DNA of 64,000 nucleotides from assembly GCA_027887005.1 (NCBI GenBank), contig JAPCJI010000008.1, forward strand, positions 2,162-66,161. Reading direction: 5' to 3'. Within the stretch, counting starts at the first letter, position 1. Every line of letters starts with the position of its first letter. The DNA comes from Nitrososphaerota archaeon. GTDB lineage: Archaea; Thermoproteota; Nitrososphaeria; Nitrososphaerales; Gagatemarchaeaceae. The notes below the pieces were generated by a model, which was not told where the DNA came from, did no database searches, and worked only from the letters and a program-made list of their open reading frames with translations. Positions 5,222-28,660 of this stretch are shown here, piece after piece. Position numbers and translations under genes: made by a program.

Positions 5222-5245
5222 CGGAAGTTCGACCGCGGTTCAAAT

Positions 5246-5344
5246 GCGGGGGTACTCAAGCCTGGTCAACGAGGCGGGACTTAAGCGGTATCCTGAGAAA
5301 TCCCGTCCCTCAGGGGTTCGTGGGTTCGAATCCCACCCCCCGCA
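5246..5344 (+). tRNA. tRNA-Leu(UAA) with a ~14-nt intron at the canonical 37/38 position
   Basis: Hand fold:
- acceptor gcggggg/cccccgc
- anticodon stem cggga/tcccg with loop cttaag[cggtatcctgagaa]a
- long variable arm
- T-arm gtggg-ttcgaat-cccac. Confidence 0.8.
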
Positions 5345-5437
5345 TCAACAGAACCGAGAAATTGAACGCCCCTAGGATTCCCCTTGCGCAATGCTTGTTT
5401 AGGTGATGGCAAAGACCGCGTCTAGTTCGAGCAACCG

Positions 5438-6034
5438 ATGAACCGGCTGGGTCCTGAAGATTACCAAAGCGGCAGACACATCAGGAAGTTGCTTCGTCTT
5501 GCGGGGGCAAAGGAGGAAGACGTGTTTTACGACCTCGGATGCGGGCGCGGTCAGCTCTGCATTGCTGCGGTCGCCGAGTTCGGAGTCAAGAAGGCGGTCG
5601 GAATCGAATTGCACAGGGGAAGGGCGGCCAAGGCAGCGGCCTCAGTTAGGAAGCAGGCATTGACAGACCGGATCCAAATCAGGAATGAGGACTTCATGGA
5701 GTCGGACATTTCCGAAGCGACCATCGTGTACTCTGGCCTCGAGGAAATCGAGGAGGATGTCCCCTTTTTCGAGAAGCATCTCGGTACTGGTTCAAGGGTC
5801 GTGAGCCTCTTCCTCCCCTTTGTGGGGATTCTACCTGATGCTGCGGACTATCCATTCTACTTGATGAAGATGCCATTCAAGAAGACGAAGGACGTGGATC
5901 TTTGGACTTCGAAGGTCCTGTCCAAGAGGACCTCCTTAGATGAGTTCTATGAAGAACTGGACGCTGACAGGGAGTACCGCTACGACAAGCGGGCCTTCAA
6001 GCGCATGATGAAGGAACGGTTCCAGGGGAGATGA
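5438..6034 (+). CDS. class I SAM-dependent methyltransferase
   Basis: Motif I VFYDLGCGRGQL followed by an acidic loop (GIELH). Confidence 0.7.
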   Translation: MNRLGPEDYQSGRHIRKLLRLAGAKEEDVFYDLGCGRGQLCIAAVAEFGVKKAVGIELHRGRAAKAAASVRKQALTDRIQIRNEDFMESDISEATIVYSGLEEIEEDVPFFEKHLGTGSRVVSLFLPFVGILPDAADYPFYLMKMPFKKTKDVDLWTSKVLSKRTSLDEFYEELDADREYRYDKRAFKRMMKERFQGR

Positions 6035-6119
6035 TTCGCCGCATGGAACGGCTCCCGCTCTGGGCGCGAGAACCTAGTCATTCGATTCCTGGTGTCGATT
6101 CCGGCCTTTCTGACCGGCT

Positions 6120-6698
6120 TCAGGGACGCGGCATGTCTTCCATGCCCATCAGATGACCGCCGAACCCGATTGCCCATAGAAGGACCGGGTACACCACCAT
6201 CCGCTCCATCCCGCCGGCACCCAGACCGAGGTAAATCTGGCCCACGTAGAGGATAAGGGCGAGCAGAGTCCCCGCTCCCAAAATCATGGCGAAGTATGAC
6301 AGTGGTGTCTTCTGGAACCTCGACGTGACGATGGCGGAAAGGCCGGCGAAGAGGAAGACGACTAGAGAAAAGATTGAATGCAGGGAAAACGGTGACCCTT
6401 CGGGAAACAAGCCCACACCCACCGCGCCGATGCCTGCCAGTACCATCAGACAGGTTGCGGGCTTCCAGTGAAAAGACCGCTGAAGGAATAACGCAGCGAC
6501 TAGCACAGAGACACCGAGGACCACAATTGACGGGTTGTAGATCTGGGAAGAGGGCAGGTTCGCGCCCAAGTCACTGATGTAGTTTGTCGAGACGCTGTAG
6601 CTTGGCCAGACTGCTTCGGCGACTATCATGAATATTCCGAACTGAACCGTGCCGATGAACAGCGCGACGCCTGCTTTCGCCGGGTTCGAGAACGTCAT
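6120..6698 (-). CDS. DUF998-like polytopic membrane protein
   Basis: 192 aa with about 6 hydrophobic helices. The NYISDLGA motif is typical of DUF998. Confidence 0.5.
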   Translation of the reverse strand: MTFSNPAKAGVALFIGTVQFGIFMIVAEAVWPSYSVSTNYISDLGANLPSSQIYNPSIVVLGVSVLVAALFLQRSFHWKPATCLMVLAGIGAVGVGLFPEGSPFSLHSIFSLVVFLFAGLSAIVTSRFQKTPLSYFAMILGAGTLLALILYVGQIYLGLGAGGMERMVVYPVLLWAIGFGGHLMGMEDMPRP

Positions 6699-6767
6699 GC
6701 CCCTTTGCTCTCCCTATCTGCGTTAAAAATGTAAGCGAAGGGGGATTCACGGCCCGTCCCACGCTTC

Positions 6768-7367
6768 CTATTCCCCGAGAGGTCTTGGGAGAATCATCAA
6801 CCCCTCCTCGGGGTTACCGATAGCCCTGAACTCACCTTTGGCATAGTGGAGGCCGACGAGGGCAGAAGTGACCGCGTCCAGTTCGTCCCCGTTCAGCTCG
6901 CCTGAGGGACGTCCGAGGTCTATGCCGTACTTCTCCAGTGCAGCCGCAAGCAATGGGAGGCCCCCCTGCTTGCGGGGCATGCCCAGCAGATCCTGGATGG
7001 CCCCGGGGAAGCTCTCGATGACCTCGAGGCCGCCGCCTTCAAGGTCGGCTCTGAGCTTCATCCCCCGGGCCGTAAGCATTCGCATGGGGCCGAGCGATAT
7101 CGGGAAGAACCTGATATGCATCCTGAGGAGTTCCTTGTCGCATTCTCTGAAGTGCGGCGGGCCCCGCTTTTCCAAGCTCTCCCTTCCCTTGGGCAGGAAC
7201 AAGGGGGCGTCGATGCTCACGACCCTGGGTCGCGCAGCGAAGGTCTGCTCAAGTATCTCCGCGTTGGTGTGGAGGACCGCCGTGCGGCAGTGCATCCGGC
7301 TGTCCATGACGCAGAAGCCGGTGTTTCTCTTCTCGCTCCCCGCAAGGTCGATGCCAACTACGCTCAA
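6768..7367 (-). CDS. DUF429 / COG2410-like predicted RNase H-fold nuclease
   Basis: VVGIDLAGSEKRNTGF, VSIDAPL and DELDAVTSALVG match the DUF429 pattern. The TTG start was chosen because the upstream part of the ORF is antisense to the M20 gene. Confidence 0.55.
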   Translation of the reverse strand: MSVVGIDLAGSEKRNTGFCVMDSRMHCRTAVLHTNAEILEQTFAARPRVVSIDAPLFLPKGRESLEKRGPPHFRECDKELLRMHIRFFPISLGPMRMLTARGMKLRADLEGGGLEVIESFPGAIQDLLGMPRKQGGLPLLAAALEKYGIDLGRPSGELNGDELDAVTSALVGLHYAKGEFRAIGNPEEGLMILPRPLGE

Positions 7368-7439
7368 TTCAATCTCGCCCCCCGAATCCCAACCTCCGGA
7401 ATGAGACCTTTTATCCGCCCCTGCCGAGATGGACACCGC

Positions 7440-8630
7440 ATGGATTTCCTTGCGGAGGCCGCGGCCATCGAGCCAGAAATCATCAAGACCAGGAGGATCA
7501 TACACCAGCGGCCTGAACTGGCCTACCACGAGACCGGGACTGCAAAGATCGTGGCGGAGAGGCTGGAAGCGCTTGGGATCAGCGTGAAGACGGGGGTGGG
7601 CGGAACAGGTGTGCTGGGGACCCTGAAGGGGGCGAAGAAGGGTAGAGTGGTCGCCTTGAGGGCAGACATGGACGCGCTTCCCGTGCAGGAGCTGGCAGAT
7701 GTTGAGTTCAAGTCCGGGAAGACGGGGGTGATGCACGCCTGCGGCCATGACACGCACGTTGCTATGCTCCTGGGGGCTGCCCGCATACTCGCAAACCACA
7801 GGAAGGATCTGCAGGGGACGGTGAAGTTCCTCTTCCAGCCTGCAGAGGAGAACGGGGGCAGGGGAGGAGCCATGCCAATGATCGAGGACGGGGTGATGAA
7901 GGACCCCAAGGTGGATTTCGTCTTTGGGCTTCACATCGACAGCAACCGGAACTCGGGCGTTTTCGGGATGAAGGAGGGCGCGATTGCGGCCGCCCCGGAC
8001 ACCTTCAAGATCAGGATAATCGGAAGAGGAGGGCATGGCTCGGCGCCCCATGAGACGGTCGACCCGATCTACATAGCCGCCCAGCTGATTCTGGCGCTGC
8101 AGGGGGTGTCATCCAGGATGATCGACCCAGTTAGGCCCTTCGTGATTTCCGTGGGCGCGGTCCACTCGGGGACCAAGGAGAACATAATCCCGGACGAGGC
8201 GGTGTTGGACGGCACGATAAGGACCCTTGACGAAGCGACCAGGCGGAGGGCGAAAACGAAAGTGGCTGAGGTGGCGAGGGGAGTGTGCAGGACCTTCGGC
8301 GCTCGCGCGGAGGTGGAGTTCGAGGAAGATGCCTACCCGGTGACGGTGAACGACGCGAAGGCGACGGAAGGCGCAGAAAAGGTCCTCAGGAGGATTCCGG
8401 GGACGAAGGTCAAGGAGATCGAGGCGATATTAGGAGGGGAGGATTTTTCGCGGTTCCTGCAAAAGGCGCCGGGAACATTCTACTTTCTGGGGACGAACAA
8501 TCCGTCTAAGGGATGCGTGTATCCAAACCACAGCTCGAGGTTCAAGGTGGACGAAGACGTCCTGAAGTACGGGGCGGCTTCGCTCGCCATGCTGGCGTTC
8601 GAATTCGGGAACCCAAAGGGACCGCAGTAG
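7440..8630 (+). CDS. M20 family amidohydrolase (aminoacylase / hippurate hydrolase type)
   Basis: IHQRPELAYHE, LRADMDALP, HACGHD, FQPAEE and GHGSAPH. Confidence 0.8.
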   Translation: MDFLAEAAAIEPEIIKTRRIIHQRPELAYHETGTAKIVAERLEALGISVKTGVGGTGVLGTLKGAKKGRVVALRADMDALPVQELADVEFKSGKTGVMHACGHDTHVAMLLGAARILANHRKDLQGTVKFLFQPAEENGGRGGAMPMIEDGVMKDPKVDFVFGLHIDSNRNSGVFGMKEGAIAAAPDTFKIRIIGRGGHGSAPHETVDPIYIAAQLILALQGVSSRMIDPVRPFVISVGAVHSGTKENIIPDEAVLDGTIRTLDEATRRRAKTKVAEVARGVCRTFGARAEVEFEEDAYPVTVNDAKATEGAEKVLRRIPGTKVKEIEAILGGEDFSRFLQKAPGTFYFLGTNNPSKGCVYPNHSSRFKVDEDVLKYGAASLAMLAFEFGNPKGPQ

Positions 8631-14165: not shown

Positions 14166-15302
14166 TTGATAGGGGGGGTCGCGAAGGAGACAGTAGAAGG
14201 CGAGAAGCGGGTCGCTCTGACACCAGAATCTGTTCCGAAGATCAAGCAGATGACCGTGGCAGTCGAGAAGGGCGCCGGAGGTGCCGCGGGCTTCTCAGAT
14301 TCCGCCTACGAAGAAGCCGGGGCGCGGGTAGTCCCCGACTCGAAGGCACTCTATCAAGAAGCGGACTTGATAATGAAAATCAGGCCGCCCTCCCCGGGAG
14401 AAGCCGTCCTGTTCAGGGATGGGAGCGCCCTGATCTCATATCTCTATCCGCTCAACAATCTGGAGGCGATGAAGATGCTTGCCGAGAGACGGGTCACTGC
14501 GTTCGCTCTCGACTTGCTGCCCCGCATCAGCCGCGCTCAGTCCATGGACACCCTTTCTTCCCAGGCTAACCTGGCAGGATACAGGGCGGTCACCCTTGCC
14601 GCGGATTCACTCCCGAAGCTCTTCCCCCTGATGATGACTGCCGCTGGTACCATAGCACCGGCCAGGGTCTTCGTCCTTGGGGCGGGGGTCTCAGGGCTCC
14701 AGGCGATCGCCACTGCCCACAGGTTGGGGGCTGTGGTCGAGGCATACGATGTGCGGCCGACGGTGAAGGAGCAGATCGAAAGCCTTGGCGCGAAGTTCGT
14801 CGAGCTCCCCATCCAGGCCCAGGATGCCCAGACCGCTGGAGGATACGCGAAGGCCCAGAGCGATGAATTCTACAGGAAGCAGCAGGAGCTCCTGGCCGAG
14901 CACACCAGGACGGCTGACGTGGTCATAGCCACCGCCCTCGTGCCTGGGAAGAAGGCCCCGAACCTAATCTCCGAGGAAGCGGTCAAGGGGATGCGCCCAG
15001 GCTCGGTTATCATCGACCTGGCAGCCGAGCAGGGGGGGAATTGCTCGCTGACTGAACCCGGAAAGACCGTCGTGAAGTATGGAGTGATCATCAAGGGCCC
15101 TCTGGATGTCCCGTCGACCATGGCTCCCCAAGCCAGCCAGCTCTTCTCCAGGAACGTCACCGCTTTCCTGGGAGCATTGGTGAAGGATGGAGCTTTGAAC
15201 CTGGACATGAAAGACCAGGTCGTCAGGGACCCCATGGTGCTCCTCAAGGGGGAGGTCGTCTACGGTCCGTTGAAGGAGGCATTGGCGGGGAGTAAGCAAT
15301 GA
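14166..15302 (+). CDS. pntAA: NAD(P) transhydrogenase subunit alpha part 1 (dI)
   Basis: 378 aa. KETVEGEKRVALTP, the Rossmann motif VLGAGVSGLQAIATA and an alanine-dehydrogenase-like fold. TTG start. Confidence 0.85.
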   Translation: MIGGVAKETVEGEKRVALTPESVPKIKQMTVAVEKGAGGAAGFSDSAYEEAGARVVPDSKALYQEADLIMKIRPPSPGEAVLFRDGSALISYLYPLNNLEAMKMLAERRVTAFALDLLPRISRAQSMDTLSSQANLAGYRAVTLAADSLPKLFPLMMTAAGTIAPARVFVLGAGVSGLQAIATAHRLGAVVEAYDVRPTVKEQIESLGAKFVELPIQAQDAQTAGGYAKAQSDEFYRKQQELLAEHTRTADVVIATALVPGKKAPNLISEEAVKGMRPGSVIIDLAAEQGGNCSLTEPGKTVVKYGVIIKGPLDVPSTMAPQASQLFSRNVTAFLGALVKDGALNLDMKDQVVRDPMVLLKGEVVYGPLKEALAGSKQ

Positions 15303-15604
15303 CGCCCCTCACCTCCGCGGACCTTGAGGTTGACCTGCTGATCTTCCTCCTCTCGACCCTCCTTGGGCAGGAGCTCATCAGGCATGTTTCGCGCCTTCTC
15401 CACACTCCCCTGATGGCCCTGACCAATGCAATCTCATCAGTCTCGTTCGTGGCTGCCCTGATCGTGCTTTCGGAGCCTGGCAGCGAGTTGGTCTCGCTCT
15501 TGGCCGGGGTCGCGGTGGCACTGGCGGCGACGAACATCGTGAGTGGGTTCCTGATCACCGACCGGATCCTGAGGCTCTTCGAGAGGAGGAAGCCGAAGAA
15601 ATGA
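15299..15604 (+). CDS. pntAB: NAD(P) transhydrogenase subunit alpha part 2 (membrane)
   Basis: 101 aa, hydrophobic. Start overlaps the stop of pntAA. Confidence 0.8.
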   Translation: MTPLTSADLEVDLLIFLLSTLLGQELIRHVSRLLHTPLMALTNAISSVSFVAALIVLSEPGSELVSLLAGVAVALAATNIVSGFLITDRILRLFERRKPKK

Positions 15605-16989
15605 GCGACCTTCTGGTTGAGTACCTGTACATCGTGTCCGCTGTGCTCTTCGTGCTTTCGCTGAAGTTCATGAGCGAGGTCAGGACCTCCCGGCTGGGAA
15701 ACTTCTGCGGCGTCGCTGGCATGGGTCTGGCTGTGGTGGCGACCCTGGGCGCCTTCCAGGTCGGACGCGTGGACCTTCTGGTGGGAGGGGTAATCATCGG
15801 AGCCGCCCTCGGGGCCCCCATAGGCCTCAAGGTGGCGATGACGGCCGTGCCGCAGAGGACGGCCATGTCCCACGCGTTCGGGTCGCTCGCGGTAGCCCTG
15901 GTCGGGGCGGCAGAGTACTACCAGGGAGCCCCTGCGATTGACACGTTCACGCTTTCTGTGCTTTCAGCGGAGATGATCCTCGGCTTCCTGACCTTCACGG
16001 GAAGCTGCCTGGCCTTTGCGAAGCTCCAGGGGTTGATCACCGGCAGGCCAATCCTGTTCCGTGGGAGGACTGTAGTCAGCCTCACGACCCTTGGCGCTGC
16101 CGTCGCTTCAGGTGTGCTCCTCGTCGCCTACCCAGGTCAAGAGTACCTCCTCCCTGTGATGGCCGCCCTGGCGCTCCTCTTCGGCTTCCAGCTCGTGGTC
16201 GCCATTGGTGGGGCGGACATGCCCACGGTCATCGCGATCCTCAACTCGTTCGCGGGGCTTTCGGCGGCCGCCCTGGGATTCGTCCTAAACAACAAGCTGC
16301 TCATTGTTGCTGGGTCCCTCGACGGGTCGTCGGGGCTGATCCTCGCCCTGATCATGAGCAAGGCCATGAACCGGTCCTTCGTGAACATACTCTTCGCCGG
16401 GGTCGGGGCGCACCCGGTAGCAGCCGCGGTCCAGCCAGGAGAGCAAGGCAGGACCGCCCAGACCTACACCGTCGAGGACGTGGCGACCATCCTGGCGAAC
16501 GCCCAGCGGGTGGTCTTCGCCCCCGGGTACGGCCTCGCGGTGGCCCAGGCCCAGCACGTGGTCAAGGAGCTGGCTGACGTCCTGCAGGCGAGGGGGGTCG
16601 ATGTGAAGTACGCCATACACCCGGTGGCCGGGCGCATGCCGGGGCACATGAACGTCCTGCTGGCGGAGGCCCAGGTCCCCTACGAGCAGCTCTGGGAGAT
16701 GGACCGGATCAACCCGCTCTTCCCCGAGACGGACGTGGTCATGGTAGTCGGGGCGAACGACGTCACGAACCCCGCGGCGAGGACGAGGGCCGACTCGCCC
16801 CTGTACGGAATGCCGATTCTGGACGTGGACAAGGCGAAGACGGTCGTATTCATCAAGCGGTCCATGGGGGCGGGCTTCTCGGGAGTCGAGAACGACCTAT
16901 TCTACAACCCCAACACGATGATGGTCCTCGGGGACGCGAAGAAGGTGGTCGGGGAGCTCGTCTCAGCGATGAGGAAGCAGAGCACCTAG
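15601..16989 (+). CDS. pntB: NAD(P) transhydrogenase subunit beta
   Basis: 462 aa. Membrane dII domain plus a C-terminal dIII domain (GYGLAVAQAQ, YAIHPVAGRMPGHMNVLLAEA, GANDVTNP). Confidence 0.9.
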   Translation: MSDLLVEYLYIVSAVLFVLSLKFMSEVRTSRLGNFCGVAGMGLAVVATLGAFQVGRVDLLVGGVIIGAALGAPIGLKVAMTAVPQRTAMSHAFGSLAVALVGAAEYYQGAPAIDTFTLSVLSAEMILGFLTFTGSCLAFAKLQGLITGRPILFRGRTVVSLTTLGAAVASGVLLVAYPGQEYLLPVMAALALLFGFQLVVAIGGADMPTVIAILNSFAGLSAAALGFVLNNKLLIVAGSLDGSSGLILALIMSKAMNRSFVNILFAGVGAHPVAAAVQPGEQGRTAQTYTVEDVATILANAQRVVFAPGYGLAVAQAQHVVKELADVLQARGVDVKYAIHPVAGRMPGHMNVLLAEAQVPYEQLWEMDRINPLFPETDVVMVVGANDVTNPAARTRADSPLYGMPILDVDKAKTVVFIKRSMGAGFSGVENDLFYNPNTMMVLGDAKKVVGELVSAMRKQST

Positions 16990-17024: not shown

Positions 17025-17570
17025 TCACTCTTGCTGGACATACGGTCTGATGAGTTCCGCTTCTGACAGTGGCTGTCTCTTGAACCAGACCACCTCGATT
17101 ACACCAAAGGTCTTCTTCAGGCCGTCCTGTATTTTGGCCATCAACGCCTGAACGTCTTCTCGTGACATCTTCTCGCCCTGCTCCTTGTGCGAACGGAGTT
17201 CCATTATGGTTTCGTTTATGGACGAGATCAATTCGATAGGCCCGACGTGGCTAGCGTTTTCCCTCGCCATCTTCAGACACGAGGAGATGGATGAGCTAGT
17301 TTCCTGCCACATGAGCATGATCAGCGCTTCATGGGGGGTCTTTGAGCTCAAGCCCCAGGCGGATGAGATCCTTTCCAAGGCCTGATAGAACCCCTTTTCG
17401 GTACTGGAAGTTGAGAGGAGTGCGGCTGCGTCCAGAGCCCTACAGATGTTTTCCGCACGCTCCAGCCATCGCCCCATCCAGATTAGGTTGTAGACCCGCG
17501 AATCCGTTAGCCACCTGTCCTTGGCAAAGACGACAGAACGAGGGTCTTCCGATGGCTTCGCGCCAGCCAT
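17025..17570 (-). CDS. short alpha-E domain protein (DUF403-like)
   Basis: YNLIWMGRWLERAENICRALD is the hallmark alpha-E N-terminal motif. At 181 aa it is shorter than the usual ~300 aa. Confidence 0.65.
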   Translation of the reverse strand: MAGAKPSEDPRSVVFAKDRWLTDSRVYNLIWMGRWLERAENICRALDAAALLSTSSTEKGFYQALERISSAWGLSSKTPHEALIMLMWQETSSSISSCLKMARENASHVGPIELISSINETIMELRSHKEQGEKMSREDVQALMAKIQDGLKKTFGVIEVVWFKRQPLSEAELIRPYVQQE

Positions 17571-17591
17571 GAGGTTATTCGGACACTACGG

Positions 17592-18452
17592 CTAATATGT
17601 GTTTGTCCTGGTCGCAGAAGCGAAGACTCGACTCAACCCTCCCGTGCCAGTCGACAGGAAGGTTCCGTTGACTGGTGAGACATCGGTATAGTCTCGCCCC
17701 ACAGCTAGTTTCAGGTAGTTTGTTCCTGCGTCGATCATTATTGCCTTCGTTGGGTCGGCCGGCAGCCACCCACATTGTGGATGGAGAAACTCAAGGTACG
17801 CATGGGTGTCACCATCCTGGCCCGTTAGGATGCAGCTCACGTAACGGGAAGGTATCCACAGCGACCTAAGGATGCCCAACGCCAAGTGGACCTTATCCTG
17901 GCAGACACCCCTGCCGTTGGCTAGCACCTGGTGTGCTTCCGTTAGGACAGTAGTAGTGCCCTTCTCGTACTTGATGTTGTCATGCACCCACTGGGTTATC
18001 TTTCCGACAGTATCCAGGAGGCTGTCAGAATCCCCCGCAATTTTCACGGCTAGGTCACGCAGGAGTAAGGGCTTCACCAGGGGCGAGGGGGAGAGAAAGT
18101 TCGTCACGTCCTGGTTGAAGTTCATGTTCTGTAGCTGTGCGTCGGGATACGGTCCGTGCCAGGGTGCAAGCCTGAATTCTCCCTGTGAGACGATGCTCAG
18201 TTCCTTGTGCCTGGTCGTCACCTTGATGCGCCGGACGATGTTGCCGTAGTCGTCGCTGAATTCTACGTATGCGGAGGGCGGAGAGGTCACCACATCGTAG
18301 CTATCGAGGAAAGTGTGGTCGTCCATGTGCGGTATGACGCGCAGGAAATCGTCGTTCTGAAGCACGTAATCCGAGTACCGGTAGACCGTTTCGTACTTGT
18401 ACCGTCCAGCGAACTCGGTCTGGCCTATTTGAGAACCCATGTTGGCTTGCAC
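17592..18452 (-). CDS. transglutaminase-like cysteine peptidase with Bact_transglu_N-type N-domain
   Basis: Candidate Cys-His-Asp triad: GRGVCQDKVH, DTHAYLEF and WLPADPT. Confidence 0.8.
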   Translation of the reverse strand: MQANMGSQIGQTEFAGRYKYETVYRYSDYVLQNDDFLRVIPHMDDHTFLDSYDVVTSPPSAYVEFSDDYGNIVRRIKVTTRHKELSIVSQGEFRLAPWHGPYPDAQLQNMNFNQDVTNFLSPSPLVKPLLLRDLAVKIAGDSDSLLDTVGKITQWVHDNIKYEKGTTTVLTEAHQVLANGRGVCQDKVHLALGILRSLWIPSRYVSCILTGQDGDTHAYLEFLHPQCGWLPADPTKAIMIDAGTNYLKLAVGRDYTDVSPVNGTFLSTGTGGLSRVFASATRTNTY

Positions 18453-19741
18453 GACCCACCGGAAGAGTTGTTGGTAATCCTTGTGTTGGCTCGGGCAACA
18501 CGTGTAAGCCCACCTGGAAAGACGGTCACCCTGCCCTCCCCGTCCTGCACCGCGTAGACCCGGAGGTCGATGTATCGTTCCTGAAACCCTCCTGACTTCC
18601 TATCGAATACCACGTGCTTTGAGAAGTCCAGCGGCTCCTGCGCTATGAAAGCGAATGGCCTGTCGATGATCCGTTGCGACATCTCTTTGCGGTGACTCTG
18701 ATCAAGATCCTGCATGATGTAGACTCCGAGTCCCCCGTACCCCTCCCTCGCCTTGAAGACCAGTTTACCAATGTTCTGGAGCGCAAACTGCCTGACCTTC
18801 GGATCCATGAGGTTGTAGGCCTTGGCGTTGGGTAGGATCGGTTCTTGCCCAAGGTAGCGGCGTATCATCTCCGGCACCCACAGGTATACCAGCTTGTCGT
18901 CCGCAACCCCTGTACCCAGCGCGTTCACGAGAATTACCTTGCCCTGCCGGTACGCTTCAGTAAGGCCCGGGACAAAGAGCTCTAGGTCTTCCACCCTTCG
19001 GTAGATGAGGTCGACCCTGACGTCCCCGTCGATGGTCCTGGCCCGGACTGTCCCGTCCTCAGCTATGAAGAGGTCGGAGCCTTCGACAAGAGGAATCCCT
19101 AGTATTTCGGATAGGTACCGATGCTCGAAGAACGCCGGGCCGTAGCTGCCATCGGTCAGGATGACACAGGCCGGCGAGCGGGTGTTGCAAAGAGATTCGA
19201 AGAGTCGCAGGTAGGTGCTGCGTATCTCGTAGTCTCTCACTCGGTACGGTCGCTTCAGTTCAGGGATGGCTCTTTCTGTGAGGTTCCTGCACTTGAGTTG
19301 GTACGATATTCCTGAAGGGATGCGCAGGTTGTCTTCCAGGACCACGTAGTTCCCGTCGCCTAGGTTCACAAGGTCGACGCCATAGATGTGCGCGTAGACG
19401 TCCTTGGCCGGCCTTACCATCTGGAGAGCGGGGTTGAAGTTGACTGAAGAGTAGACGACGCTCTTGGGGACCACGTCCTGCTTGCCGCAGTAGAGTTCCA
19501 GGAGGAACTTGTTGATCGCCCTTAGGCGCTGTTCGACGCCAGCGGCTATGCGTGACCACTCCTCGCGTCCGATCAGCCTGGGAACCCAGTCGATTGGGAC
19601 GGGCCTCCAACGGTGCGGGTCAAGCTGGAAGGTGAACGAGTCCAACTCAACCTGCCGGTTCGCGTTCGACCACCTCTTGCCGATCTCCCTTGCGCCGAGA
19701 CCGTTGATGGTCTCGATCATCTTAGAATAGGGAGCCCTCAC
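18425..19741 (-). CDS. circularly permuted ATP-grasp type 2 protein (DUF404/DUF407)
   Basis: 438 aa. Family-typical length, segments (LLELYCGKQDVVP, VVLEDNLRIPSG, ERYIDLRVYAV) and genomic context. The GTG start could instead be the ATG 21 nt downstream. Confidence 0.75.
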   Translation of the reverse strand: MRAPYSKMIETINGLGAREIGKRWSNANRQVELDSFTFQLDPHRWRPVPIDWVPRLIGREEWSRIAAGVEQRLRAINKFLLELYCGKQDVVPKSVVYSSVNFNPALQMVRPAKDVYAHIYGVDLVNLGDGNYVVLEDNLRIPSGISYQLKCRNLTERAIPELKRPYRVRDYEIRSTYLRLFESLCNTRSPACVILTDGSYGPAFFEHRYLSEILGIPLVEGSDLFIAEDGTVRARTIDGDVRVDLIYRRVEDLELFVPGLTEAYRQGKVILVNALGTGVADDKLVYLWVPEMIRRYLGQEPILPNAKAYNLMDPKVRQFALQNIGKLVFKAREGYGGLGVYIMQDLDQSHRKEMSQRIIDRPFAFIAQEPLDFSKHVVFDRKSGGFQERYIDLRVYAVQDGEGRVTVFPGGLTRVARANTRITNNSSGGSCKPTWVLK

Positions 19742-20292: not shown

Positions 20293-21369
20293 CTAACCGA
20301 ATGTGAACGTGTAGAGTTTGAACCCGGGACCTGCGATTATCTCCAACTCATGCCATCCGTAGGAGGGCCCATTGACGATGTCGTAAAGCCTCGCCGAGCC
20401 TATGTTCACAGACGCAACGCCCTGATGCAGCATCACGTCGCTCCCGACGTATGTCGGAGACAGATTGTTGCCGTCCAACCTTACCTCTATCACACTGGAA
20501 TTCCCCTCCGCGACGACGTTGACGTTCTTGGCCTGGTAGATCAGGAACAGCTTCGAGCCGTTTCCAACCGACACCATGCCGTCAGGCGCGTTGTACCATT
20601 CGCCCGAGAAGTACACGGTGTTGTTCTGCATGTTCCCGGTGATGGTGTAGTCGACGACCTGTCTCGGTGAGAATCCCTGAGGGTTCCCTATCGATGACCT
20701 TGCTGTGTTGTAACCGACGTAGATCTCCGGGGTTCCTATCTTGCCGAAATCCACGCTGGTCGCGTTCACAGAGTTGGCAACCACCCCCGCGCTCACATTG
20801 TACCCCGCCTTCTGCAGCAACCCTATGATCAGCGTTTCGGTGGTGTTGTATCCCCCCTCTCCTATGTGCGTCTCCCTGATGTTTCCCTTCGCGTCTATGA
20901 GGTAGTCTGCCGGCCAGTAGTGGTTGTTGTAGGCGTTCCAGGTGGCGGAGTTGCTGTCCAAGGCGACGGGGTAGTTTATCCCGAACGACCTGACCGCTGC
21001 CAAGACGTTGCTGTAGTTCTTCTCAAACTGGAACTCGGGGGTGTGCACGCCTACGATCACCAGCCCGTTGTTCCCGTATTTGTCGAACCAAGCGTTGAGG
21101 TAAGGGATCGTCCGTATGCAGTTGATGCAGGAGTAGGTCCAGAAGTCCACCAGGACCACCTTCCCACTCAGCCCCGAAATGTTCAGGGGCTGGGTGTTGA
21201 TCCAGGCTGCTATGCCCTGAAAGTTCGGGGCCGGGCCAAGGTTGGGGAGGTTCGACACGTTTTCGACGGTTTGAGATGGGCTGAGAAACGGGAGTAGGAC
21301 CGACACACCTGCCGCAACTATCACGATGCCAACGATTCCAAATACGATCACGTACGCGTTGAGCCTCAT
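20293..21369 (-). CDS. membrane-anchored thioredoxin-like (TlpA/redoxin) protein with a DipZ-like C-terminal beta domain
   Basis: N-terminal TM segment, the CxxC motif WTYSCINCIRTIP, then a ~150-aa beta-rich C-domain. Confidence 0.7.
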   Translation of the reverse strand: MRLNAYVIVFGIVGIVIVAAGVSVLLPFLSPSQTVENVSNLPNLGPAPNFQGIAAWINTQPLNISGLSGKVVLVDFWTYSCINCIRTIPYLNAWFDKYGNNGLVIVGVHTPEFQFEKNYSNVLAAVRSFGINYPVALDSNSATWNAYNNHYWPADYLIDAKGNIRETHIGEGGYNTTETLIIGLLQKAGYNVSAGVVANSVNATSVDFGKIGTPEIYVGYNTARSSIGNPQGFSPRQVVDYTITGNMQNNTVYFSGEWYNAPDGMVSVGNGSKLFLIYQAKNVNVVAEGNSSVIEVRLDGNNLSPTYVGSDVMLHQGVASVNIGSARLYDIVNGPSYGWHELEIIAGPGFKLYTFTFG

Positions 21370-22115
21370 CGTTTCGCCGCCTCCACTGAGGTGCCAGACA
21401 CGAACGCCAGGAATGCCGGCACGAGCGGCAGTATGCAGGGCGAGATGAAAGTCAGGAACCCCGCGGAGAGAGCGATCAGAAAGTTGAGCTGGGACTGGGC
21501 GAGTGGGTTTGCCAAAGAGCCCAGTGGGCCAACCCCATTTAGGAAGATCTGTAGGATTCCGATGTAGTTGGTGACCACGAGCAACCCCACCCCTATCAAG
21601 AACAGCCCGCTGACGACGTTGAAGTACCTCAGGAACCTCCCACTCTTCTTAAGAAACCCGGAGACCCTCGATACGAACGCGCCGGCTACGAGGAAGGGGA
21701 TGCCCAACCCAAGGGAGAACGCCATGAGGTATAGGAATCCTAGTCCGGGTGAGACGGCTGCGAGGGTGTAGACAGAGCCGAGAATCGCGCCCACGCAAGG
21801 GGTCCACCCTAGGGCGAAAGCGACCCCGAACGCTACTGACGTCACATAGTTGTTCTTGAACTTCCTCGGGCGAATCTTGTGCTCGACGCTGAAGAACGGT
21901 ATCGCGTACCTGACAGATGCGATCATGAGGATTCCGAAGACCACAATGACGGACCCACCGACCAATCTGATCGTGTTGATGGCACCGAGCGAAGCAGTGG
22001 AAAGAACAGTCTGCAGCAGCACCCCCACGATTGAAAACACGAAGGTAAACCCTAGAACGAAGAACACCGAATTCAGGAAGACCTCCTCTCTGGCCCTCGC
22101 CGGATCTGTCGACAT
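21366..22115 (-). CDS. ccdA: CcdA/DsbD-family thiol:disulfide electron transporter
   Basis: FISPCILPLVP and GWTPCVGAILG conserved cysteine motifs, about 6 TM segments. Stop overlaps the downstream thioredoxin-like gene. Confidence 0.8.
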   Translation of the reverse strand: MSTDPARAREEVFLNSVFFVLGFTFVFSIVGVLLQTVLSTASLGAINTIRLVGGSVIVVFGILMIASVRYAIPFFSVEHKIRPRKFKNNYVTSVAFGVAFALGWTPCVGAILGSVYTLAAVSPGLGFLYLMAFSLGLGIPFLVAGAFVSRVSGFLKKSGRFLRYFNVVSGLFLIGVGLLVVTNYIGILQIFLNGVGPLGSLANPLAQSQLNFLIALSAGFLTFISPCILPLVPAFLAFVSGTSVEAAKR

Positions 22116-22288: not shown

Positions 22289-22302
22289 TGCCCCGGCCGG
22301 GA
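22289..22302 (+). repeat. copy of the tRNA-Glu 3' end (tgccccggccggga), candidate att remnant
   Basis: 14/14 identical to 28549-28562, in the same orientation, inside a 418-bp non-coding gap. Confidence 0.5.
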
Positions 22303-24517: not shown

Positions 24518-25726
24518 ATGTCTGAGAAACGTGGACTGGCCGTAAATACGCTTCAACACGCCTCGTTGTCGAGAGATTTGGCTCCGCGAAAGCGGACCCC
24601 TCTACGGGCCCTCATAGTTATTTCCATTCTCATGCTACTTGTTCTTGTCAGCCTTCCCGAACAGCCCTTGGCAGTGTACGAGGGTTCCCTCCTGGGTTTA
24701 GTAGGGGTTTGGACCGTCGCTCTCTTCGTCTTTAGAAGCCGCAGCCATACGTTGCCGCAACGTCGGCAACAGCCTGAAAGGGAGCATACGAATCCGACTG
24801 TTCTCGCAGAAACCTCAGCGTCCTTGAGCCAACCAACTGTGGCTTCCAACGGTCTGCGAGAGGCGATGCGAAAACACCCGCTGTTCTGCTTCTTCTTGAT
24901 CGCCTACGCGTCCTCGTGGGTCGCTTTGATACCCGGCATCCTTTCGGTTTGGGGCTTCCTGCGGTTCGATTACACGATTTCATCCATCCTGAGCTCGTTT
25001 GCGGGACCGCCCGTGGCGGCCGTGATAATGACCTACATCACCGAGGGGAAAGCAGGCGTGAATGGCTTGCAGCGGCGTCTTAGACAACGAGGCGCCGGCA
25101 AGCCGTGGTATCTGTTCATACTGCCGTGCATTCCATCGCTGCTCTTGCTTGGGATAATTGTCCAGCCAGGAATGCTTGCGAGCTTTCAGGGTCTTACCCC
25201 CACCCTTTTGGTGACCTATCCTGCATACTTCTTCGTGGTCTTCTTTGGGGTTGCGCTGCCCGAGGAAATCGGTTGGCGCGGCTTCGCGCTACCCCGCATG
25301 CAACCACGCTATGGACCGCTTTGGGGTACTCTGCTTCTAGGCGTCCTGTGGTCCTTCTGGCACCTGCCCCGCTTCCTGGCGCCGGACCAAGGGGGCGGGC
25401 CAGGCACGGGCATCGCCACCTTCCTCACAAACTTTTCCGTCTTCTTTCTCTTGCTTCTGGCATTGGCGATTATCTTCACTTGGGTCTTCAACTATACCGG
25501 AGGAAGCGTCTTCATCTCCAATTTGTTGCATGCCAGTATCGATACCCCAGCAGCTGTCTGGATACCCCTCTTCGCTGCCGTGAACGTGACGAGCATAGAC
25601 TTGGCCAACCTCATCGCGTTTGGAGTGCCAGCACTTTTGATTCTCATCCTGACCCGGGGTCGGCTTGGATACAGACCAGTGATTATGGCTGCCCCGAGGA
25701 AAGCGGAGGTCGTGCTGCAACCGTAG
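24518..25726 (+). CDS. CPBP family intramembrane glutamic endopeptidase (CAAX/Abi type) with a ~120-aa N-terminal extension
   Basis: LPEEIGWRGFALP, FWHLP and a later LLHASID motif. Confidence 0.75.
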   Translation: MSEKRGLAVNTLQHASLSRDLAPRKRTPLRALIVISILMLLVLVSLPEQPLAVYEGSLLGLVGVWTVALFVFRSRSHTLPQRRQQPEREHTNPTVLAETSASLSQPTVASNGLREAMRKHPLFCFFLIAYASSWVALIPGILSVWGFLRFDYTISSILSSFAGPPVAAVIMTYITEGKAGVNGLQRRLRQRGAGKPWYLFILPCIPSLLLLGIIVQPGMLASFQGLTPTLLVTYPAYFFVVFFGVALPEEIGWRGFALPRMQPRYGPLWGTLLLGVLWSFWHLPRFLAPDQGGGPGTGIATFLTNFSVFFLLLLALAIIFTWVFNYTGGSVFISNLLHASIDTPAAVWIPLFAAVNVTSIDLANLIAFGVPALLILILTRGRLGYRPVIMAAPRKAEVVLQP

Positions 25727-26338: not shown

Positions 26339-26350
26339 GTGCCCCGGCCG
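26339..26350 (+). repeat. partial copy of the tRNA-Glu 3' end (gtgccccggccg)
   Basis: 12/12 identical to 28548-28559. An upstream gaattggg box also recurs at similar spacing (32 vs 27 nt). Confidence 0.45.
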
Positions 26351-26491
26351 AGCTTAGCACCAACTAGCTAATTGCCCTGACATACTCTAGGTGAATGAAC
26401 CGGTAGGGAAAGGTCACCTTTGTGGACCATGCGTTAGCCCAGCCATCTTGAAAACCACCTCAAGACGACAATAGCAATAATGCTTGCGTGA

Positions 26492-28513
26492 TTAGAACGT
26501 CGCTCTCAGCTTCTGCATTAATGCCTGGTATCTAGGATCATCTCTTGATTTGGCCAGAAGTGGACAATACATCACGTACGCATATCGAATTGTGTGTTGG
26601 TCAAGTGCCAGATTGGCATAAGTGAAGTATGAATCGAGGTCCCCGAGAGCGTGGTAGATGAAGGCGATGTCATTCAGGTTCGTGGCTCCAAGCCACTTCT
26701 TCTCAATTTCTTGAATTACATCTAGGGCTCCTTTTCTGTCACCCGTGTAGCCAGCTATGAAGCCTCTCATCCATGTGGCCCAGCGATGAGTGGGGTCCAA
26801 CCTTTCTACTTTCGAATGAAACTCCCTCGCCTTTTCGACGTCACCTTTGTAGAGGTAATATTCGGTCATCGCTCTGTATGTGCCAGCGGGGGCGACCAGC
26901 ACCGTCTTCTCCCAGTGCTGCAGAGCCTTGTTCTCCATCCCAAGGTAGAAGTAGAACTGTCCAAGTCGCTCTGCGTAGCGCGCCAATACCGGATCTAGTC
27001 TGTAGCAACTCTCCGCGGCACTGATCCCTTCTTCCTTTTCGCCTCTCGTCAGAAAGACGTTGGACAGGACAAAGTGAGCCTCCGCAAGACTAGGGTTCAA
27101 TTCGATCGCACGTCTGGCTTCAGTTTCGCACCCTTGAATATCATCCTCTTGGAAGTGTACCCTTGCTAGAGTGGCATGCGCTTCGGCCAGTTCTGGGTCA
27201 ATTTGTAGGGCCTTTCTAACCGAGATATCTGCCTTGGGCATGTCCTGTTCATATGGCTCGTAGTTGTCGGTAACAAGCTCTGTGTAGGCCCAGGCAATTC
27301 CAGCATGAGCTTTGGCAAAGGTAGGATCAAGAGTTATCGCTCTTTCAAGTAATCCCAATGCCTGCCTCAAGGAGGATTCCGTCCTTTCGCGGATGAGCTC
27401 TCGTCCTCTCAAATACAGGGTGTAGGCCTCCGTGTTCTCTGTCGGCCTTCTTTCAATAACCCGTTTCTCATCCTCAACAAGTCGGATCTTGAGTTCCCCT
27501 GCGACCTTCTCAGCGATTTCAGATTGGATGGCAAAAACATCTTCCAATTGCCTGTCGTAATTCTGGGCCCAAATGTGACCTTCAGTCGCAGTGTCGATGA
27601 GCTGGGCAGTAATCCTGACCCTGTTTCCCGCCTTCCTCACGCTCCCTTCTAGCATGGTGCCTACCTCCAACTCCTTTCCAATCTCCTTCACTTTCTTCGT
27701 CGTCCCCTTGTATCCCATAACCGAAGTCCTAGCGATGACGGTGAGCTGCCTCACGCCGGATATTGAAGTGATGAGTTCCTCGGTCACGCCATCGGCGAAG
27801 TACCCCTCCTCTGGATCGGAGCTCAGGTTGGTGAATGGGAGAATTGCGATACGCTTCTTGTCCAATACAACGCCCATGGATTCCGGCCTCTCCCAAGGGA
27901 ACACCACCCTGAAAACCTCCAAGGATTCTCCGACGTTTTTCAGTTCTTTCTTGCCGATGCTGAGAAGTTGAAAATCAGATTTGTTCTTTACGTGGTCGTA
28001 CACATGCTCTGAAATGCAGACTCCTCCCGGCGTAGCAAGAGGTTCTATTCTGGAGGCAATGTTGACCGCGTCCCCGTATACATCGTTCTGACTGTGTATT
28101 ACGTCCCCTAGGTGGACACCTATTCGGAGAAATATCTTCCTATCCACGGGGCGACTTGAGTTGAGCTCATGCAGAGACTCCTGTACGTCGAAGGCGCACC
28201 TGACTGCCTCAAGGGCGCTTTCGAACTCTATGAGGAAAGCGTCGCCGATGGTTTTGACCTCTCTCCCGCCATGCCTCAAGAGCACGGGCCTGACGAGGAT
28301 ACGCTGTTCTTCCAAGAGTTCCATCGCAACTGCTTCATTCTTCTGCGTGAGGGATGTGTAACCAACTATGTCGGTGAACATTATCGCGGCGAGCCTTCGT
28401 TCCCCTTCTGACACAGAAAACTCCAGTCGTTTGGCCGTACCACAGGTTAACTCTTTCGTAGAGACCCAGCAACATTGTGGATCACGACGACATGGTATGA
28501 TGCCCCTCTCCAC
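26492..28513 (-). CDS. class III adenylate/guanylate cyclase fused to a TolB-N-like linker module and TPR repeats
   Basis: Cyclase motifs AAIMFTDIVGYTSL, GDAFLIEF, RIGVHLGDV and GDAVNIASR. These are followed by IAILPFTNLSSDPEEGYFADGVTEELIT and then multiple TPR units. Start uncertain (GTG). Confidence 0.8.
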   Translation of the reverse strand: MERGIIPCRRDPQCCWVSTKELTCGTAKRLEFSVSEGERRLAAIMFTDIVGYTSLTQKNEAVAMELLEEQRILVRPVLLRHGGREVKTIGDAFLIEFESALEAVRCAFDVQESLHELNSSRPVDRKIFLRIGVHLGDVIHSQNDVYGDAVNIASRIEPLATPGGVCISEHVYDHVKNKSDFQLLSIGKKELKNVGESLEVFRVVFPWERPESMGVVLDKKRIAILPFTNLSSDPEEGYFADGVTEELITSISGVRQLTVIARTSVMGYKGTTKKVKEIGKELEVGTMLEGSVRKAGNRVRITAQLIDTATEGHIWAQNYDRQLEDVFAIQSEIAEKVAGELKIRLVEDEKRVIERRPTENTEAYTLYLRGRELIRERTESSLRQALGLLERAITLDPTFAKAHAGIAWAYTELVTDNYEPYEQDMPKADISVRKALQIDPELAEAHATLARVHFQEDDIQGCETEARRAIELNPSLAEAHFVLSNVFLTRGEKEEGISAAESCYRLDPVLARYAERLGQFYFYLGMENKALQHWEKTVLVAPAGTYRAMTEYYLYKGDVEKAREFHSKVERLDPTHRWATWMRGFIAGYTGDRKGALDVIQEIEKKWLGATNLNDIAFIYHALGDLDSYFTYANLALDQHTIRYAYVMYCPLLAKSRDDPRYQALMQKLRATF

Positions 28514-28548
28514 TCTTGCAGAATTGGGCCTGTTTCATGTGAAAGACG

Positions 28549-28660
28549 TGCCCCGGCCGGGATTCGAACCCGGGTCGCCGACTCGAAAGGCCAGCATACT
28601 CTCGGCCTGCTCGCACGGAGTTGACCGGGCTGTACGCGCAGCGCTCTATACTACCGGGGC
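28549..28660 (-). tRNA. tRNA-Glu(UUC) with ~37 nt of extra sequence in the D-loop (non-canonical intron or introns)
   Basis: Hand fold of the reverse complement:
- acceptor gccccgg/ccggggc
- anticodon arm ctggc-ctttcga-gtcgg
- T-arm ccggg-ttcgaat-cccgg
- D-stem gtat/gtat enclosing 48 nt instead of about 11. Confidence 0.75.

Follow-up and report, generated by a model that had tools for sequence, protein, structure and literature searches.

A compact ATP-grasp/transglutaminase-like/alpha-E cassette in a Nitrososphaerota archaeon carries a conserved Gln/Glu-ended tail on a single-repeat alpha-E protein

By sequence homology, three adjacent genes in a 64,000-nucleotide stretch of DNA from a Nitrososphaerota archaeon (contig JAPCJI010000008.1 of assembly GCA_027887005.1; hereafter the window) form a compact variant of the circularly permuted (CP) ATP-grasp/alpha-E/transglutaminase-like amide-ligase system. 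They encode a CP ATP-grasp protein, a transglutaminase-like protein, and a short, or "mini," alpha-E protein. What is new here is a conserved, flexible C-terminal tail on the mini alpha-E that ends in Gln or Glu, while the gene content itself would not surprise a specialist. This invariant tail is the most informative feature of the locus and was absent from a preliminary description of the same DNA made from the sequence alone. That description had assigned the genes to an amide-ligase system of the type associated with Iyer et al. 2009, an assignment that holds broadly, as each of the three defining families is represented; its domain calls were borne out by Pfam, in which CP_ATPgrasp_2, Alpha-E, Bact_transglu_N, and Transglut_core were all matched.

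The mini alpha-E protein and its conserved termini

The homologue search covered 5.8 billion proteins and yielded 133 clusters, 120 of which were listed. Mini alpha-E proteins share the C-terminal consensus ...W-F-x-R-E-x-L-[ST]-E-E-E-[VI]-[YF]-x-R-F-V-Q-Q (alignment A1), with a tail reading ...SEEEVYRRFVQQ. The last residues are one to seven Gln in 108 of the 120 listed clusters and Gln-Gln-Glu in nine, all of which belong to the window's clade; the three that have neither ending are truncated or frameshifted. Genomic copies behave in the same way, 80 of 84 ending in one to eight Gln and four in QQE. Because the tail Gln codons of these 84 copies are a mixture of CAG and CAA, all three stop codons are in use, and the DNA downstream is unrelated, the sequences indicate that selection acts on the free protein C terminus of the mini alpha-E. 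A single nucleotide separates the QQE ending from the common QQQ, and deamidation of Gln yields Glu.

At the other end of the protein, an N-terminal extension with the consensus M-x-[ED]-P-R-[SA]...W-L-T-D-S-R (alignment A1) has P10, T22, and R25 invariant and R11, D23, and S24 conserved to at least 90%; it is not present in canonical alpha-E proteins, which begin MLSRVAE. The AlphaFold2 (AF2) model of the mini alpha-E is a helical bundle, confident for residues 24 to 163 (mean predicted local distance difference test [pLDDT] score, 80.9; predicted template modeling score, 0.74), with pLDDT falling below 50 for residues 1 to 21 and to 47 to 63 for residues ~165 to 181. Termini that are conserved yet modeled with low pLDDT are a pattern typical of segments that would fold only on a partner. 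Neither sequence nor fold searches of the alpha-E against the PDB returned anything significant, the best structural E value being 0.38.

The preliminary description had presented this protein as an alpha-E of about half the usual length. As a measurement this stands, given its 181 residues and a match to PF04168 (1.4e-13) limited to profile positions 8 to 133 of 294; as a truncated half it does not, since the protein is apparently a complete repeat with extensions of its own. A profile built from 45 mini alpha-E sequences and searched against 1.84 billion representative proteins matched canonical alpha-E proteins of 300 to 330 aa in two stretches each, and on re-scoring, 63 of 63 canonical sequences were matched once in the N-half and again in the C-half. 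Furthermore, the ER motif, which is the most conserved part of the mini alpha-E (alignment A1 shows no variation at W31, G33, R34, W35, E37, and R38), is present twice in the canonical consensus, as YWMGRYLERAENTARLVDV and FIRLGRNLERADMTTRILDV. Since the mini profile fits both canonical halves and the ER motif occurs twice there, the mini alpha-E is, on this evidence from alignment, a single full repeat of the domain that the canonical protein carries as a tandem duplicate. The Pfam text for PF04168 reportedly says as much, describing the domain as "typically found as a tandem duplication."

A Pfam match over only half of the model, together with a GC content slightly below that of the surroundings, could also point to a truncated alpha-E pseudogene or to an operon that is the decaying remnant of a recently transferred island. 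We regard this as virtually untenable. More than 130 clusters have nearly equal lengths (of those listed, nearly all are 171 to 193 aa, and three are shorter), 173 reference genomes contain relatives, and the window clade is deeply diverged, at ~51% identity to bacterial copies. A pseudogene is ruled out by the homologue lengths, the invariant termini, and the invariant ER motif. The preliminary description had itself allowed that the gene might prove to be truncated with its remainder nearby, but the window holds no other alpha-E-like open reading frame (ORF), whichever frame is read. Nor is there space for a missing half, because the alpha-E stop sits 35 nt from that of the convergent pntB gene; a second half thus has neither room nor trace.

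The two enzymes and a proposed C-terminal modification cycle

ATP-grasp enzymes convert a carboxylate to an acyl phosphate, which is then coupled to an amine, and those working on C termini include TTL, RimK, LysX, and glutathionylspermidine synthetase. The protein encoded in the window covers the CP_ATPgrasp_2 model in full (3.3e-108, positions 1 to 374 of 374) and also matches CP_ATPgrasp_1 (6.3e-85), which identifies it as a circularly permuted ATP-grasp (PF14403/PF04174). Its nearest solved relative is PDB entry 3n6x (1.5e-84), deposited as a putative glutathionylspermidine synthase. In 74 orthologues, 144 of the 438 columns are conserved to at least 97%, among them Tyr5, which fits the GTG start, and the protein is under very strong constraint. 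We predict it to be an ATP-dependent carboxylate-amine ligase.

Transglutaminase-fold enzymes, such as transglutaminases, PNGase, and vasohibin, form a Cys thioester and attack Gln carboxamides or peptide/isopeptide bonds. The protein in the window combines Bact_transglu_N (PF08379, 1.7e-10) with Transglut_core (PF01841, 1.6e-20), and its AF2 model (pLDDT, 91.9) is closest in Foldseek to the uncharacterized structure 3isr (template modeling score, 0.80), followed by TgpA, TG2/TG3, PNGase, and PeiP. The intact Cys-His-Asp set noted in the preliminary description is well founded: the motifs quoted for it are present, and the Cys184/His217/Asp233 triad reaches at least 97% conservation among 83 orthologues. 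Thus, the protein is predicted to be an active Cys-His-Asp thiol enzyme. No NCBIfam model matched any of the three proteins.

We propose, tentatively and at just short of an even chance, that the alpha-E tail is the handle or target of the two enzymes, with the thiol enzyme deamidating or trimming Gln and the ATP-grasp ligating an amine to the carboxylate. Such chemistry would fit the tail because transglutaminase and ATP-grasp folds act on Gln carboxamides and on carboxylates, respectively. In this scenario, the mini alpha-E would homodimerize, mimicking the canonical pseudo-dimer, and would bind the ATP-grasp, with its C-terminal tail as the handle on which both enzymes work. The thiol enzyme would attack the terminal Gln, deamidating it to Glu in a Dop-like or protein-glutaminase-like manner, or might instead remove a C-terminal residue or adduct, as vasohibin does; the window's clade would already encode the terminal Glu. 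The ATP-grasp would turn the exposed terminal carboxylate into an acyl phosphate and then ligate an amine, be it an amino acid, a polyamine, or a protein lysine, to the tail, in parallel to TTL, RimK, LysX, and glutathionylspermidine synthetase. In combination, these activities may constitute a reversible C-terminal modification cycle, the sole grounds for which are the conserved terminal Gln/Glu and the fit of the neighboring enzymes. The TGL protein of this system has been predicted to erase ATP-grasp-ligated tags by analogy with tubulin, with no target named (PMC3495828).

A more far-reaching version, in which the mini alpha-E is a new prokaryotic C-terminal handle whose Gln is deamidated and whose Glu is then ligated to a target lysine or a LysW-style metabolite, seems to us rather doubtful. 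If true, it would amount to a Pup-like or carrier-protein-like system made of entirely different folds, common to Dehalococcoidia/SAR202 and soil Nitrososphaeria, and would provide the first substrate for the whole alpha-E/Anbu-type system.

Several observations weigh against a modification cycle acting on the tail. First, the conserved C terminus could instead be a docking or autoinhibitory motif. Second, canonical alpha-E proteins have no such tail, 67 of them ending in 19 different residues (A in 14, G in 10, Q in 4, E in 4, and so on), which argues that the ancestral role of alpha-E was not that of a C-terminal substrate. Third, tail-less mini alpha-E proteins of 151 to 161 aa (P0136, P0137, P0138, P0145, and P0148) keep the N-terminal DPRS motif but end directly after RWF(H). 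Three of them, a sister group of 151 to 160 aa (P0136, P0137, and P0148, at loci L086 to L088), are encoded directly behind a transglutaminase gene that retains its full triad; L087 and L088, whose systems branch outside the tailed clade, also have ATP-grasp sequence upstream, and L086 ends at a contig edge. The enzymes must therefore also function without the tail. Finally, the fold search does not discriminate among peptidase, amidase, and transamidase chemistry, and neither the literature searched nor any experiment gives a functional assignment for any member of the system.

That canonical alpha-E proteins and tail-less minis function without the tail would be accommodated more readily if alpha-E served the ATP-grasp only as a non-covalent adaptor or as a regulatory subunit. 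The alpha-E termini would then serve in docking or as a pseudo-substrate, the substrate would be encoded elsewhere, and the thiol enzyme would reverse the product, for example a glutathionylspermidine-like amide. The name under which the nearest solved ATP-grasp relative was deposited points in this direction, as does the ER motif of the core, which is more conserved than any other part of alpha-E; moreover, some bacteria have fusions of alpha-E with ATP-grasp domains, as would suit a subunit. Docking, however, poorly explains a variable number of Gln residues with an invariant Gln/Glu in last place, or the switch from Q to E, and no candidate substrate gene is conserved nearby. We consider an adaptor role, the main rival to the modification cycle, quite possible, though on balance not probable.

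The terminal Gln side chains might also be acyl donors that the transglutaminase cross-links to target lysines or polyamines without ATP, making the mini alpha-E a Pup-like protein tag with the ATP-grasp in a separate role or as a back-up for the Glu form. Transglutaminases classically use flexible, Gln-rich termini as donors, the Q/E alternation mirrors the GGQ/GGE of Pup, and the fold is related to the true transglutaminases TG2 and TG3. Even so, we judge this improbable, as a 20-kDa helical bundle would be an unusual tag, no proteasome or Anbu is linked at the cassette, and the general prediction for COG1305-type proteins of bacteria is peptidase activity (PMC3495828).

Locus layout, distribution, and history

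All three ORFs are co-directional on the minus strand (Table 1). The stop codon of the ATP-grasp gene (18425 to 18427) lies inside the transglutaminase ORF, and a 21-nt spacer separates the latter from alpha-E. The preliminary description had given this overlap as up to 28 nt. The full length is upheld, since homologues support both GTG starts, that of the transglutaminase at 18452 through the N-terminal consensus MQAxLGS; an overlap of ~25 nt recurs in nearly all of 85 loci. Translational coupling of the ATP-grasp and transglutaminase genes is probable.

Table 1. Positions of the cassette genes and their features in the window
Feature	Coordinates	Strand	Basis
CP ATP-grasp, predicted amide ligase, 438 aa, GTG start	18425..19741	-	Pfam + orthologue conservation
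Transglutaminase-like, predicted thiol enzyme (Bact_transglu_N + Transglut_core), 286 aa, GTG start	17592..18452	-	Pfam, AF2, Foldseek
Single-repeat "mini" alpha-E, 181 aa, ATG start	17025..17570	-	Pfam, homologues, AF2
Overlap of ATP-grasp 3' end and transglutaminase 5' end, 28 nt	18425..18452	-	Sequence
Transglutaminase catalytic Cys184, codon TGC	17901..17903	-	GVCQD motif
Transglutaminase His217 codon	17802-17804	-	THA motif
Transglutaminase Asp233 codon	17754-17756	-	ADPT motif
Alpha-E ER motif WMGRWLERAEN, residues 31-41	17448..17480	-	Invariant residues in mini alpha-E alignment
Mini-specific N-terminal extension E-D-P-R-S ... W-L-T-D-S-R, residues 8-25	17496..17549	-	Alignment
Alpha-E C-terminal tail LSEAELIRPYVQQE, residues 168-181, end Gln-Gln-Glu-COOH	17028..17069	-	Clusters + genomic copies

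The features that the preliminary description treated as peculiar to this locus instead characterize a large, conserved family whose members come mainly from Dehalococcoidia. In a scan of one genome per species, the best 80 of the 173 genomes with mini alpha-E relatives comprised 77 Dehalococcoidia/Chloroflexota/SAR202 metagenome-assembled genomes (MAGs) and three archaeal ones. The order ATP-grasp, transglutaminase, mini alpha-E on one strand is kept in 84 of 85 loci, and the sole exception (L030) is cut by a contig end. Clustering of all flanking ORFs from 86 loci revealed no fourth conserved gene, the commonest flanking gene being luciferase-like (27 of 86), and a dedicated search found no conserved ORF of 20 to 90 aa upstream, downstream, or between the genes that could encode a precursor peptide. 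Since neither a fourth gene nor a precursor peptide is conserved, the three-gene cassette is, by genomic context, self-contained. Anbu is absent from the flanks of the 86 loci, and in the window the cassette is flanked by pntAB, redoxin, and DsbD; the remainder of the genome was not searched for it.

Several loci depart from the common form. In three from Dehalococcoidia (L056, L070, and L073, at ~6756 to 7424), a second, divergent transglutaminase paralogue (25% identity) lies just downstream of alpha-E. One locus (L077, 2325 to 4916) has a ~1.4-kb insertion within the ATP-grasp, and in several long-read MAGs (L002/L012, L026, L063, and L076), the ATP-grasp is split across frames, through sequencing errors or decay. 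Another single-repeat system (L089 to L091, ~5386 to 8422) consists of a 513-aa CP ATP-grasp followed by a 156-aa alpha-E and a Ras/Arf-like GTPase; it has no transglutaminase, its alpha-E has neither the N-terminal extension nor the Gln tail, and it adjoins an Lhr helicase, a metallophosphatase, a STAND NTPase, and an N6/N4 methyltransferase.

Within the window, the cassette is convergent with a complete pntAA-pntAB-pntB operon for a proton-translocating transhydrogenase (14166 to 16989). Just upstream, on the same strand as the cassette, lie overlapping genes for a thioredoxin-like/redoxin protein with a Thioredoxin_10 C-terminal domain and a DsbD/CcdA-type membrane protein (20293 to 22115), a pair that is not kept beside the cassette in other genomes. 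An identical alpha-E adjoins pntB in GCA_044451885.1, where the contig with alpha-E and the pnt genes ends 142 nt upstream of alpha-E, within the transglutaminase gene.

The archaeal host named in the preliminary description is supported. The window encodes topoisomerase (Topo) VI-B and A/V-ATPase subunit I, as well as a 102-nt tRNA with an apparent intron (5245 to 5346; Rfam tRNA score, 42.9 bits; anticodon not cleanly assigned by ARAGORN), and the closest loci, at 85 to 90% protein identity, are in Nitrososphaerales/"Nitrosopumilales" MAGs. The AT-richer island of that description survives only as a modest difference in composition. The GC content of the operon is 0.562 against 0.593 for the window, a dip of ~3 points, and that at third codon positions is 0.68 to 0.74 against 0.75 to 0.87 for neighboring genes; the low-GC stretch continues to ~28.5 kb across unrelated genes, and no mobility genes or att repeats were found flanking the operon. 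The 3' end of a minus-strand tRNA-Glu (28548 to 28621) is partly copied directly at 22289 to 22302 (14/14) and 26339 to 26361 (19/23). These repeats bracket the lowest-GC part of the window (22.3 to 28.6 kb; GC, 0.51 to 0.55), which contains genes for an adenylate cyclase-tetratricopeptide repeat protein (26492 to 28513) and a CAAX protease (24518 to 25726), and not the operon. They may be att remnants of an integrated element, although the 14-mer could be due to chance. Given the small GC dip, the lack of mobility genes, and repeats that bracket another segment, a genomic-island reading of the operon is not supported. Its flanks are not syntenic with those of the closest relatives, which is consistent with relocation but proves nothing.

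The system is clearly shared between domains. A first neighbor-joining tree nested the archaeal copies in Dehalococcoidia, suggesting a single transfer, a conclusion that we withdrew after bootstrapping a concatenated tree. In the latter, the window clade is recovered in 100 of 100 replicates, archaeal monophyly in 31, and a position of the window clade basal to the tailed systems in 40; the window proteins share ~51% identity with bacterial ones and 55% with the other archaeal clade. These trees name no donor lineage, which the preliminary description had proposed to seek by phylogeny, and fix neither the direction nor the number of transfers.

Comparison with known systems

The canonical ATP-grasp/alpha-E/transglutaminase (/Anbu) system was reportedly recognized by Iyer et al. 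2009 and Valas and Bourne 2008. Canonical operons occur in Proteobacteria, Cyanobacteria, and Bacteroidota, and nitrogen starvation elicits a response of the canonical operon. Iyer et al. 2009 is cited here through PMC5666114, PMC6376114, and PMC3495828. A single-repeat, Gln-tailed alpha-E is not described in the literature searched, although Iyer et al. 2009 may already mention single-repeat operons; a 2026 preprint on uS11 isoaspartate was an irrelevant match.

The canonical and compact systems share the same three protein families, including the 3n6x-like ATP-grasp (1.5e-84), the two-domain architecture and 3isr fold of the transglutaminase, and the ER motif of alpha-E. Three features of the canonical Anbu-type form, namely the tandem alpha-E, the gene order, and Anbu, are nevertheless missing here. 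The canonical order is ATP-grasp, alpha-E, transglutaminase, Anbu (PMC6376114, PMC3235984). Because alpha-E is thus documented in second place (PMC6376114), the preliminary description was right that the order here, with alpha-E third, is unlike the one it gave for bacteria. Anbu is linked there and not here; the canonical alpha-E is a tandem pair of ~310 aa, whereas here it is one repeat of ~175 aa; only the mini alpha-E has the N-terminal EPRS extension and the C-terminal ...FVQQ(n)/QQE tail; and, unlike the canonical system, the compact variant is found in Dehalococcoidia and Nitrososphaeria.

The likeness to Pup/Dop/PafA is one of analogy only: a free C terminus occupied by Gln in the majority of lineages and by Glu in others, and an amidase encoded alongside an ATP-dependent carboxylate-amine ligase. 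PafA and Dop are glutamine-synthetase-like, whereas the enzymes here are of the ATP-grasp and transglutaminase folds, and Pup is a disordered protein of 64 aa ending in GGQ/GGE, whereas alpha-E is a folded helical bundle ending in VQQ(n)/QQE. The proteasome linkage of pupylation is not shared, so that only the terminal Q/E logic is common to both. In tubulin tyrosination, RimK/S6, and LysX/LysW, an ATP-grasp adds a residue or amine to the acidic C-terminal tail of a specific protein, but from a different clade than the circularly permuted one here and on unrelated substrates. In the tubulin cycle, vasohibin, a transglutaminase-fold cysteine peptidase, removes the residue, and a parallel with the bacterial system has been drawn (PMC3495828). 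With no conserved small precursor gene beside the ATP-grasp, the cassette does not qualify as a graspetide or other ribosomally synthesized and posttranslationally modified peptide (RiPP) system. The remaining comparison is with GspS, in which a permuted ATP-grasp-type ligase amidates the C-terminal carboxylate of a peptide and a Cys-His thiol amidase reverses the reaction, but GspS unites both activities in a single polypeptide, has a CHAP amidase domain and a small-molecule substrate, and lacks an alpha-E partner.

The ATP-grasp/alpha-E/transglutaminase (Anbu) system has been known since 2008 to 2009 and is widespread in bacteria, yet has gone for more than 15 years without a substrate. Dehalococcoidia/SAR202, abundant lineages of the oceans and the subsurface, commonly carry the compact variant, which also occurs in soil Nitrososphaeria; any function would thus be environmentally relevant and inter-domain. 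Relative to the canonical form, the variant reduces the system to three genes and reveals an alpha-E C-terminal Gln/Glu that is hidden there, making the mini alpha-E a candidate target of the two enzymes that lends itself to testing.

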